64,000 bases of DNA from an uncultured bacterium (GTDB lineage: Bacteria > Oederibacteriota > Muellerivitia > Muellerivitales > Muellerivitaceae). Numbering within the stretch: the first letter of the stretch is position 1; the number at the start of each line of letters is the position of its first letter. The notes under the pieces are model-generated. The model was not told where the DNA came from. It made no database searches and worked only from the letters and a program-made list of their open reading frames with translations. Shown piece by piece: positions 16,607 through 19,609 of the stretch. The stretch lies in assembly GCA_964529445.1 (NCBI GenBank), contig CAZGWJ010000002.1:5182-69181 (forward strand), read 5' to 3'. The position numbers and the translations under genes are program-made.

Positions 16607-19600
16607 ATGTCCTTCCGTCCCACCCGATCCCGACAGGACCCCAAGTTACTCGTCAAGGACCTTTTCCGCCGCGAAGAATTTCGCGATCGATTGGTCCATG
16701 TCGAGACGGTTCCTTCCCGTCCCGAGAGGACCGTGCCATGGCCTTCCTGCGTCGCGCCCCCCTTGGCATCCCTCTTCACCGGGACGGGCATCCACGAACC
16801 CTGGGTCCATCAGGCACGCGCATGGGAAGCGCTCGAAAGCGGCAAACACGTCGCTATTACCACCCCAACGGCCTCCGGAAAGACCCTGGTGTTCAACCTT
16901 CCCGTCCTAGGATCCATCCTTAAGGATCCCTCCGCGAAAGCCCTCTATCTTTATCCGACAAAGGCCCTGGCCCAGGACCAGCTGAAAACCCTGCAGGAGA
17001 TATCCGGGTTGATGTCCTCGGCCCGGATGAATCCCATCACGGCCGAGATCTATGACGGGGATACCTCTTCCTCCCGCAGGGCGCGCATCCGAAAAAACCC
17101 GCCCGGAATCCTTTTGACCAATCCCGACATGTTGCACCTGGGTTTCCTTCCGAACCAGGATGGCTGGTCCCACTTCTTCGGGAAACTGAAATATGTGGTG
17201 GTGGACGAAGCCCACTCGTATCGCGGCGTTTTCGGATCCCACGTGGGCCATGTGTTCCGGCGCCTGCGGCGCATCCTGGAGCTCCAGGGGTCGCGGCCCC
17301 GGTGGATCGCCTGCTCCGCCACGGTGGGAAACCCTAATGAATTCCTGGGGCAACTGACGGGGCTTCCCTTCGAAGTCATCTCGGAAAGCGGGGCCCCCAC
17401 CTCGACCAAGACCTTCGTCCTCTGGAACCCGCCGGCATCACCCTACACCGACGCCGTGACGCTCCTGGCCCATTGTGTGGAAGCGGGCCTCAAGACCATC
17501 GTCTTTACCAAGGCCCGGAAGATCACGGAACTCATTTCGATGTGGGTGAATCGGGCCCATCCCGAATGGGAAGGCCGGATCCGCTCCTACCGGGCCGGAT
17601 ACCTGCCTTCGGAACGGCGGGAGATCGAGGCCCTGTTGTTCTCGGATCGATTGAGCGCCGTCATCTCTACCTCGGCGCTGGAAGTGGGGATCGACGTGGG
17701 TGGGCTGGATGCCTGCATCCTGGTGGGATATCCGGGAACGATGATCTCGACCTGGCAAAGATCAGGCCGCGTGGGACGGGGTGACGCATCCTCCCTCATC
17801 TTCCTGGTCGGGATGCCGGACGCCCTCGACCAGTACTGGATGAGGCATCCGGGGAAGTTCTTCGAGTTCCGCCCCGAAGCGATCGTGGCCGACGTGGGGA
17901 ACGAGGTCATCGCGCGCGCGCATCTTCTTTGCGCGGCTGCCGAATCACCGCTGGACCCCGAGCGGGACGACGATCTGTACGACGGCATCCTTTCACGCGA
18001 GACGCCGGGTCTCCTGAAGGAGGGGCGCCTCTTGGAATCGGCGGAAGGGCGCCGCCTCTTCGCCTCCGATCCGAGGCCCCAGCGGGGGGTTTCCATCCGG
18101 GACATCGGAGAAGGTTATTCCATCGTCGATCGCGAATCGGGGGAATTGATCGGCACCATCGATTCGCATCGCGCTTTCCGCGATTGCCACCCGGGTGCCG
18201 TGTACCTGCACCAGGGGATGCAGTACGTGGTGAAGGACCTATCCTGGGAGGAGCGCAGGATCCAGGTTTCCGGCGAGGCGGTCGATTTCTACACCCAGGT
18301 GAACTACGAGGAGGAGACCGAGATCCTGGAGGAGGAGGCCACGCGCGCGGTCGGGGCCGCGGGCAGCCCCTGCACGCTCCATTTCGGACGGGTCCGCGTG
18401 ACGCAACGATTCATCAACTACGAGACGCATCGAACGGCCGATGGACAGGTTATCGCAACCCATCCGCTCACCCTTCCGCCGCAGATCTTCGAGACCGAGG
18501 CGATATGGCTGAAGCTTCCACAACGCTTGAATGCCGAGGTGACGGATCGGGGGCGGCATTTCATGGGCGGGCTCCATGCCGTCGAGCACGCTTTCATCGC
18601 CATGATGCCTGTGCACATCCTCTGCGATCGATGGGATCTCGGGGGCGTCTCCACGCCTGCCCACCCGCAGGTGCCCCAACCCGTCATCTTCATCTATGAC
18701 GGGTATCCCGGGGGGGTGGGACTGACCCGAAAGGCCTATGCGGAATTCGAGGGACTTCTCGCCACCACCGCCGGGATGGTCGCCGACTGCGGATGCGAGG
18801 AGGGGTGCCCCGCCTGCATCCAATCCCCGAAGTGCGGCAGCGGAAACCACCCCCTCGACAAGGGCGCGGCTCTGCAGATTTTGGGTCGCATCGAGGGAAC
18901 CCCGCGGGTTGAACGATCAAAAGCCGTCGGGAAAGGGAAAAACGGCGAAGACGGATCCCGGGAGGAGGTTCGGGGAGCCAACTCGCGCCCCTCCGCCTTT
19001 TCCGAATCGGAGAGGGACGCGATGGATCCGGGAAAAGCGCCTGCGTTTCCCGCACCCGTTCCGCCCGAAAGGACCGGACCCGTGGTTTTCGACATCGAGA
19101 CGCGTTACCTCGCCGGGGAGGTCATGGGCGGATGGAACAACCTGCCTGCCATGCGCATCGCCTGCGCCGTGGTCTACGATGTCGAGAAGGACGAGTACTT
19201 CGTCTACCGGGAGGAACACGCGGCGGAACTGGTCCGGCACCTGAGGGCCGCGACGCTCGTGGTGGGTTTCAATTCGCGGCGGTTCGATTACGGCGTCGTG
19301 CAGGGTTACACCGCATTCGACCTCTCGACCCTTCCCACCCTCGACCTGATGGCCGATCTCCAGACGAGACTGAAGCACCGACTGTCCCTCTCCCACCTGG
19401 CGCGGGAGACCCTCGGCGCCGACAAGACGGCCGACGGGCTCCAAGCTGTGCAATGGTGGCGGGAAGGGAAGGAGGACCTGGTGATCGGGTATTGCAGGGA
19501 CGACGTGAGAATTACCCACGAATTGTGGAGGTTCGGTCGGGAAAAGGGATACGTTCTATTCGCACATAAGGGGACGGGTGAGCGGGTGAAATGCCCGGTG

Positions 19601-19609
19601 GACTGGTGA
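16607..19609 (+). CDS. MrfA/YprA-type DEXH helicase with DUF1998 Zn-finger, fused to a C-terminal DnaQ/RNase H-like (YprB/MrfB-type) exonuclease domain
   Basis: Walker A TPTASGKTLVF, DEAH box VVVDEAHSYRG, SAT, helicase-C (VGYPGTMISTWQRSGRVGR). DUF1998 four-Cys cluster CGCEEGCPACIQSPKCGSGNHPLDK. After a linker: exo motifs VVFDIETRY, GFNSRRFDYGVV, YCRDDVRITHELW. Confidence 0.75.
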   Translation: MSFRPTRSRQDPKLLVKDLFRREEFRDRLVHVETVPSRPERTVPWPSCVAPPLASLFTGTGIHEPWVHQARAWEALESGKHVAITTPTASGKTLVFNLPVLGSILKDPSAKALYLYPTKALAQDQLKTLQEISGLMSSARMNPITAEIYDGDTSSSRRARIRKNPPGILLTNPDMLHLGFLPNQDGWSHFFGKLKYVVVDEAHSYRGVFGSHVGHVFRRLRRILELQGSRPRWIACSATVGNPNEFLGQLTGLPFEVISESGAPTSTKTFVLWNPPASPYTDAVTLLAHCVEAGLKTIVFTKARKITELISMWVNRAHPEWEGRIRSYRAGYLPSERREIEALLFSDRLSAVISTSALEVGIDVGGLDACILVGYPGTMISTWQRSGRVGRGDASSLIFLVGMPDALDQYWMRHPGKFFEFRPEAIVADVGNEVIARAHLLCAAAESPLDPERDDDLYDGILSRETPGLLKEGRLLESAEGRRLFASDPRPQRGVSIRDIGEGYSIVDRESGELIGTIDSHRAFRDCHPGAVYLHQGMQYVVKDLSWEERRIQVSGEAVDFYTQVNYEEETEILEEEATRAVGAAGSPCTLHFGRVRVTQRFINYETHRTADGQVIATHPLTLPPQIFETEAIWLKLPQRLNAEVTDRGRHFMGGLHAVEHAFIAMMPVHILCDRWDLGGVSTPAHPQVPQPVIFIYDGYPGGVGLTRKAYAEFEGLLATTAGMVADCGCEEGCPACIQSPKCGSGNHPLDKGAALQILGRIEGTPRVERSKAVGKGKNGEDGSREEVRGANSRPSAFSESERDAMDPGKAPAFPAPVPPERTGPVVFDIETRYLAGEVMGGWNNLPAMRIACAVVYDVEKDEYFVYREEHAAELVRHLRAATLVVGFNSRRFDYGVVQGYTAFDLSTLPTLDLMADLQTRLKHRLSLSHLARETLGADKTADGLQAVQWWREGKEDLVIGYCRDDVRITHELWRFGREKGYVLFAHKGTGERVKCPVDW

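Follow-up and report, generated by a model that had tools for sequence, protein, structure and literature searches.

In Bacillus subtilis, the proteins MrfA and MrfB interact with each other and work in the same pathway, and removal of MrfB's N-terminus eliminated its interaction with MrfA in bacterial two-hybrid assays (10.1101/426304). Fused MrfA-MrfB homologues were mentioned in the legend of Fig. 6 of that study (Burby & Simmons 2018, bioRxiv 10.1101/426304), and a repair-branch YprA helicase was later described as 'fused to MrfB/YprB homologs' (Bell et al. 2025, bioRxiv 10.1101/2025.09.15.676423). Here we analyze a gene of this kind in a stretch of 64,000 nucleotides from an uncultured bacterium of the Oederibacteriota (family Muellerivitaceae; GenBank assembly GCA_964529445.1, contig CAZGWJ010000002.1, positions 5,182 to 69,181), which is called the window throughout. 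Positions 16607-19609 of the plus strand form one uninterrupted open reading frame (ORF) with an ATG start, 1000 codons, and a stop codon. In an earlier annotation of the window, referred to as the original prediction, the ORF had been read as a helicase, a DUF1998 module, a linker, and an exonuclease, all joined in one polypeptide of 1000 amino acids (aa). The uninterrupted ORF, the order of the Pfam matches, and the motifs validated this architecture. We propose that the product is probably a single-chain housekeeping DNA-repair helicase-nuclease that works like MrfAB, a reading by analogy to which we assign a probability of roughly 70%. The gene and its parts are listed below; AF2 denotes AlphaFold2 models, and pLDDT their predicted local distance difference test score.

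16607..19609, plus strand: whole fusion gene, MrfA/YprA-family helicase, linker, and predicted DEDDy exonuclease; 1000 aa plus stop
16808..17335, plus strand: RecA1 (DEAD) domain, aa 68-243; Pfam PF00270, E 1e-31
17474..17779, plus strand: RecA2 (Helicase_C) domain, aa 290-391; Pfam match, motif VI QRSGRVGR at 384-391
17891..18106, plus strand: winged-helix domain WHD_HRQ1, aa 429-500; Pfam PF22982, E 2e-9
18107..18580, plus strand: putative OB-CON 'canopy' region, aa 501-658; placed by collinearity with B. subtilis MrfA (6ZNP)
18581..18904, plus strand: MZB/DUF1998 Zn-binding domain, aa 659-766; Pfam PF09369 over aa 659-738, E 3e-22, 79.7 bits
18788-18835, plus strand: Zn cysteines C728, C730, C734, and C737, plus C743; alignment to MrfA, invariant
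18905..19042, plus strand: disordered linker, aa 767-812; AF2 pLDDT below 50
19058..19606, plus strand: predicted DEDDy 3'-5' exonuclease domain, aa 818-1000; PF13482, AF2, Foldseek, invariant residues

The motifs of both catalytic parts could be read from the sequence. The helicase contains a Walker A GKT (91-93), DEAH (200-203), SAT (237-239), and the motif VI listed above, and the exonuclease contains FDIET (828-832), RRFDY (891-895), and YCRDD (962-966), which supply the catalytic set of D829/E831 (Exo I), D894 (Exo II), and Y962/D966 (Exo III). Conservation was assessed in an alignment of 40 full-length homologues with 46-76% identity; the helicase motifs, five cysteines, D829, E831, D894, Y962, and D966 were invariant in 40 out of 40. 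The AF2 model of the full-length fusion had a mean pLDDT of 86.7 and a predicted template modelling score of 0.84. Its poorly modelled stretch, about 46 aa long, corresponds to the low-complexity linker of roughly 50 aa that had been predicted; among the homologues the linker varies in sequence and ranges from about 25 to 90 residues. Inspection by eye of the N-terminus and the linker in the 40 homologues revealed no conserved short motif, e.g. a beta-clamp-binding peptide.

The helicase part is collinear with B. subtilis MrfA/YprA, to which aa 26-740 could be aligned with an E-value of 8e-143 (phmmer against 6ZNP), 36% identity over 730 aa, and 5% gaps. MrfA was also the top PDB match of the full-length model (6ZNP; Foldseek E 1e-69, template modelling (TM) score 0.72-0.81 when normalised on MrfA), and the MrfA structures left Lhr, Brr2, and Hel308 far behind. 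The window protein and MrfA (PDB 6ZNP/6ZNQ/6ZNS) share the order of the N-terminal region (NTR), RecA1, RecA2, winged helix (WH), OB-CON, and MZB as well as the Zn motif CxCx3Cx2C. The naming of the OB-CON or canopy domain was taken from PMC7797055; in the AF2 model of the window protein, this region (aa 501-658) has a beta-rich secondary structure. In the alignment, cysteines C728, C730, C734, and C737 fall on the MrfA motif CPCHDGCPSC. In contrast to the window protein, MrfA stops after MZB at 749 aa, while the window protein is 250 aa longer and continues with the linker and the exonuclease. The Pfam matches, the motifs, and the collinear alignment thus all agree with the predicted MrfA-type DEAH helicase with a DUF1998/MZB domain. 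Only the cysteine spacing had been misread as CxxC-x-CxxC-x5-C; the residues 728, 730, 734, 737, and 743 lie in CGCEEGCPACIQSPKC (aa 728-743) and are spaced C-x-C-x3-C-x2-C-x5-C. The fifth cysteine, C743 (18833-18835), is situated five residues past the four-cysteine motif and is invariant in all 40 homologues, and the alignment with MrfA stops before it. The NCBIfam model TIGR03817 (DECH_helic) matched aa 29-761 with 728 bits, below its curated cutoff of 874; by this score, the window helicase is related to the hypothetical equivalog TIGR03817 and is not a member of it. The helicase belongs to the repair-type MrfA/YprA family, outside the defence branch.

The last 183 residues were modelled as an alpha/beta RNase H-like fold with a pLDDT of 95.9, forming a compact domain of about 175 aa. 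The RNase_H_2 model PF13482 matched aa 828-973 (E 7e-8, 38.2 bits versus a cutoff of 22), the match to DNA_pol_A_exo1 remained below threshold with 20 bits, and no NCBIfam model was found for the domain. In the PDB, it was best matched by the proofreading 3'-5' exonuclease domains that T7 DNA polymerase and archaeal B-family polymerases carry (Foldseek E 7e-7 to 1e-5, TM score at most 0.65), and a profile of 28 exonuclease sequences weakly retrieved Pol delta, T7 polymerase, and NrnC-type exonucleases from the PDB sequences. For the published structure of MrfB, a resemblance to this group of proofreading domains has been reported (PMC11194089). Because the general base in the YCRDD motif is Y962 and not a histidine, the sequence assigns the window exonuclease to the DEDDy type. 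The DEDD residues of the predicted exonuclease, D829, E831, D894, and D966, are all present and, together with Y962, invariant in the fused as well as in the standalone relatives, and the domain is expected to be catalytically competent despite the exchange of histidine for tyrosine.

For comparison, MrfB was obtained from the B. subtilis chromosome: the MrfA sequence was rebuilt from the PDB alignment, and the gene was then located (locus L011). As predicted, mrfA (3001-5250) and mrfB (5266-6507) are separate genes, with mrfB starting 15 bp downstream. MrfB has 413 aa and contains D107, E109, D172, H258, and D262, a residue numbering that matches PMC11194089; it reached 136.6 bits with PF13482 and had tetratricopeptide repeat (TPR) matches at 283-386. 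The two exonucleases have in common the PF13482 core, the DEDD metal-dependent exonuclease type, and an MrfA helicase as partner. However, MrfB is encoded separately, is extended by about 100 aa at its N-terminus, has a TPR domain at its C-terminus, and shows a DEDDh set (H258), whereas the window exonuclease is of the DEDDy type (Y962), and its core of about 175 aa starts directly after the disordered linker without such an extension; Pfam did not detect a TPR domain in the window protein, which ends 34 aa past D966. The pairwise similarity was marginal: BLASTP aligned only 70 aa around Exo II (E 0.008), hhalign gave a probability of 18%, and a hidden Markov model (HMM) of the clade of the window exonuclease scored MrfB at 5.5 bits. 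The spacing between the aspartates of Exo I and Exo II is 65 residues in both proteins. MrfB was not recovered from the PDB sequences at E-values up to 10, either with phmmer or with the 28-sequence profile, and the Foldseek top 50 for the exonuclease consisted entirely of TREX-like proteins and proofreading domains of polymerases, with no MrfB among them; in both cases the presence of an MrfB entry in the database is unconfirmed. Judged from these sequences, the window exonuclease and MrfB have their Pfam family and catalytic mechanism in common, but are only distant relatives. The label 'MrfB/YprB-type' of the original prediction therefore holds at the level of the Pfam family (38 versus 137 bits), but not beyond it, in view of the missing extension and TPR domain, the tyrosine in place of His258, and the marginal alignment.

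The distribution of the fused architecture was analyzed by searching the fusion against 5.8 billion proteins and counting its relatives as clusters at 90% identity. The identical protein was already publicly available as P0001 (NCBI/ENA). Besides it, the fused form was found in more than 100 other clusters, with lengths of 950-1030 aa, query coverages of 95-100%, and identities of 46-77%. Only few of the clusters carry names, and these are from Acidobacteriota, Methylomirabilales, Proteobacteria, and unclassified bacteria; genome loci of the fused form add Calditrichaeota and Spirochaetales. In all these clusters, the partnership with the MrfA-type helicase is thus a conserved covalent fusion, in agreement with the physical helicase-nuclease partnership that the original prediction had read from it. 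In contrast, the claim that the gene 'defines a compact variant' was overstated, as the fused architecture is widespread in uncultured bacteria, already appears in two earlier papers, and is not new.

Relatives of the exonuclease domain outside of fusions were collected in an exhaustive HMMER search with this domain, with representatives at 50% identity. The search yielded 2037 cluster representatives at E-values up to 1e-3 and 201 at E-values up to 1e-30. Among the best 150 representatives, about 51 were fused proteins or fragments thereof, about 55 were short and contained the domain from near residue 1, and 43 carried unrelated N-terminal extensions. The closest standalone relatives are about 180 aa long and are 43-50% identical to the window exonuclease. 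They are part of a large standalone family of putative DEDDy exonucleases of about 180 aa, with about 2000 clusters at 50% identity (e.g. P0154, P0168, P0192, and P0229), for which no characterised member was found.

A profile built from an alignment of six standalone sequences was used to retrieve 80 metagenome loci (L012-L091). Nearly all of them had a stop codon a few codons upstream of the exonuclease domain, and an MrfA-like helicase was found in the flanks of 0 of the 80 loci (tblastn, E-values up to 1e-5). These standalone relatives are therefore not operon partners of MrfA. A reading by eye revealed radical-SAM-like, acylphosphatase-like, peptidase-like, HEAT-repeat, and RseP-like genes as recurrent neighbours. 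In a locus from Saccharibacteria (L010, 98-2121), a standalone homologue of 194 aa with 39% identity lies directly downstream of an ORF of 437 aa, which by eye resembles histidyl-tRNA synthetase (hisS). When 114 exonuclease domains were placed in a neighbour-joining tree with B. subtilis MrfB as the outgroup, fused and standalone forms were intermixed, with 17 parsimony changes; the tree was not trusted, because the domain is short and several of the 'standalone' representatives are probably fragments.

The fusion gene is situated directly downstream of dnaN, as had been predicted, and is embedded in the following genes of the window.

13561-15018, plus strand: dnaA; Pfam match, part of the gene order of the lineage
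15353-16474, plus strand: dnaN; Pfam match, 132 bp upstream of the fusion gene
19790-21028, plus strand: GAF-HD (HD_5) gene; Pfam match, conserved downstream neighbour in the lineage

The order of dnaA, dnaN, fusion, and GAF-HD was retained in five out of five cases, i.e. the window and four further loci (L093-L096) with fusions of 61-77% identity. A 4HBT thioesterase gene is inserted between the fusion and the GAF-HD gene in two of these five lineage members, and the outer flanks around the conserved core differ among them. On the independently assembled contig with the identical protein (L092), the short flanks of the fusion likewise include dnaN and GAF-HD. In many bacteria, recF sits directly after dnaN; neither recF nor gyrB was found after dnaN in the window and in L093-L096. 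On the minus strand of the window, 1264-5489 encode mnmE, jag (KhpB-like), and yidC, classic neighbours of the replication origin, and with this gene set the window represents the chromosomal oriC region. The linkage to dnaN is lineage-specific, because tblastn with the DnaA and DnaN of the window detected neither gene in the flanking sequences of seven loci with 42-46% identity (L003-L009). In three of these, L004 (1847-9030), L005 (3165-8970), and L009 (3219-9024), where the fusions are 43-44% identical, tgt was found upstream of the fusion gene in 3 of 3; a family-2 glycosyltransferase gene lies between tgt and the fusion in L004 and L005, and radA/sms is located further upstream in L004. 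Both contexts, dnaA-dnaN and radA-tgt-glycosyltransferase, are housekeeping contexts. The numbers of promoters and terminators around the fusion gene did not exceed those of shuffled controls, and they have no bearing on co-transcription with dnaN.

Elsewhere in the window, a cobalamin riboswitch (Rfam RF00174, 88 bits) was detected at 9564-9747 on the plus strand; it adjoins a FecCD-type transporter gene (7507-8508) and lies upstream of a long ORF (9571-11883). An ORF of 759 aa on the minus strand (21145-23424) had only a weak, sub-threshold match to Glyco_hydro_42, and in L093 and L096 its position is taken by a gene of 618-632 aa on the minus strand that carries no annotation.

Several other explanations of the gene were considered. 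A frameshift or an assembly chimera could have merged two separate genes, and the low-complexity linker is the sole place where such an error could hide; nothing else speaks for it. However, more than 100 independent clusters with 46-77% identity, which stem from many assemblies and several phyla, show the same continuous architecture, the key residues are conserved, and the identical protein is present on two independently assembled contigs. Because of this evidence, an artefact, the absence of which the original prediction had presupposed, was rejected as having a negligible chance of being true. The protein could also be an anti-phage helicase-nuclease from the defence branch of the YprA family, like Druantia DruE, ARMADA, or TALON. 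The PADLOC models BrxHI, SngC, and DruE matched the helicase core with E-values of 1e-32 to 1e-44, and helicases of the defence branch often have C-terminal nucleases, in TALON with RNase H-fold domains. Yet the PADLOC matches are restricted to about aa 64-406, the generic superfamily 2 (SF2) core, and the protein is collinear with MrfA without inserted BrxA-like or extra zinc modules. The RNase H domains of TALON have been described as inactivated, whereas the window domain retains all catalytic residues. The neighbours are dnaA, dnaN, and GAF-HD in a conserved order at the replication-origin region, and a methyltransferase, a phospholipase D (PLD) nuclease, or BrxHII was not found among them. 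In fact, none of the hallmarks sought from the defence branch (Druantia, ARMADA, TALON, DISARM, and Dpd), i.e. inserted modules, defence neighbours, and a PD-(D/E)xK nuclease, was found at the locus. A role in defence was rejected as very improbable on account of the collinearity with MrfA, the partial PADLOC matches, and the housekeeping neighbours, which include radA-tgt in another lineage. Because the gene directly follows dnaA-dnaN in five out of five genomes, the place of recF in many bacteria, the fusion might instead be a replication-coupled enzyme for fork or gap processing that is co-regulated with the beta clamp and perhaps replaces RecF-type functions, rather than an enzyme of drug-specific repair such as B. 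subtilis MrfAB. We regard this as unlikely, though less so than a role in defence.

Much harder to decide is where the exonuclease came from, as the fusion may have arisen from an mrfAB-type operon or from the recruitment of a different small exonuclease. In the latter case, an MrfA-only helicase would have acquired a small standalone PF13482/DEDDy exonuclease, and the product would be a functional analogue of MrfAB and not an orthologous fusion of adjacent mrfA and mrfB genes. The score of only 5.5 bits that the clade profile gives to B. subtilis MrfB and the hhalign probability of 18% favour such a recruitment, as do the absence of the N-terminal extension and the TPR domain of MrfB and the tyrosine in place of the histidine. 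The same holds for the nearest relatives, which are the standalone proteins of about 180 aa with 43-50% identity, for the absence of an MrfA-like helicase from the flanks of all 80 standalone loci, and for the homologue that adjoins hisS in L010. On the other hand, both exonucleases pass the same Pfam model, Exo I and Exo II lie the same number of residues apart in the two, and Bell et al. regard the nucleases of such fusions as homologues of MrfB/YprB. Furthermore, the set of 80 loci is biased toward the standalone subfamily, because the retrieving profile was built from standalone sequences, and no robust phylogeny stands behind a recruitment. Taken together, we give this origin a chance only slightly short of even.

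The proposal of a single-chain repair enzyme that works like MrfAB builds on the domain composition, the intact catalytic residues, the conserved architecture, and the housekeeping context, all of which were directly observed. We infer the polarity, the substrate, and the biological role of the fusion by analogy with B. subtilis MrfAB. Traits named for the MrfA helicase family in this respect are 3'->5' translocase/helicase activity on single-stranded DNA and a part in mitomycin C repair. By this analogy, the helicase would load on single-stranded DNA and translocate in the 3'->5' direction, its movement would peel the damaged strand from its partner, and the tethered exonuclease would digest the peeled strand from the free 3' end. 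The covalent link would stand in for the contact that the N-terminal region of MrfB makes with MrfA. Such a tether would render an MrfB-like N-terminal extension dispensable, and this would account for the absence of both the extension and the TPR domain. Several points weigh against the proposal. The window protein and its fused homologues are known here from sequences alone, and the exonuclease is very distant from MrfB by BLASTP, hhalign, and the clade HMM. Distant MrfAB homologues from P. aeruginosa failed to complement B. subtilis mutants, and the conclusion of Burby & Simmons was that homologues at such a distance may serve other purposes. Finally, the standalone relatives of the exonuclease are unlinked to MrfA, and because of this, the partnership may have arisen independently and be directed at another substrate.

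The fusion provides independent 'Rosetta-stone' support for the view that an MrfA-type helicase and a 3'-5' exonuclease form one physical unit. A single chain without the TPR domain and the N-terminal extension could simplify structural work on the hand-off of the 3' end to the nuclease. The combination of a helicase and an exonuclease in a single polypeptide has counterparts in other families: WRN contains a helicase with 3'->5' polarity and a DEDDy 3'-5' exonuclease, and DinG of S. aureus contains a helicase and a DEDD 3'-5' exonuclease. However, WRN (RecQ) and DinG (DinG/XPD-like) represent other helicase families, their exonucleases are N-terminal, and they are not homologous to the window protein as fusions. 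Druantia III also pairs an MrfA-like 3'->5' helicase, DruE, with a 3'-5' exonuclease, DruH, which act on DNA junctions (bioRxiv 10.64898/2026.05.13.724313). In contrast to the window fusion, Druantia III serves in defence; its DruE has additional domains and a PLD nuclease, and DruH is a separate and unrelated multidomain exonuclease. The fusions mentioned by Burby & Simmons and by Bell et al. have the same kind of architecture, the clade of their examples aside, but they were treated only in passing, and the exonuclease subtype, the linker, and the dnaN-linked gene order were not described. Against this background, the window fusion leaves the current picture of the MrfA family unchanged. Its features are only mildly unusual, namely the minimal, putatively DEDDy-type exonuclease with standalone relatives that are unlinked to MrfA, and the place after dnaN that is conserved in the lineage. 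Accordingly, what it adds to the described systems is modest: the predicted DEDDy type of the exonuclease, its great distance from MrfB, and a lineage-specific gene order after dnaN.

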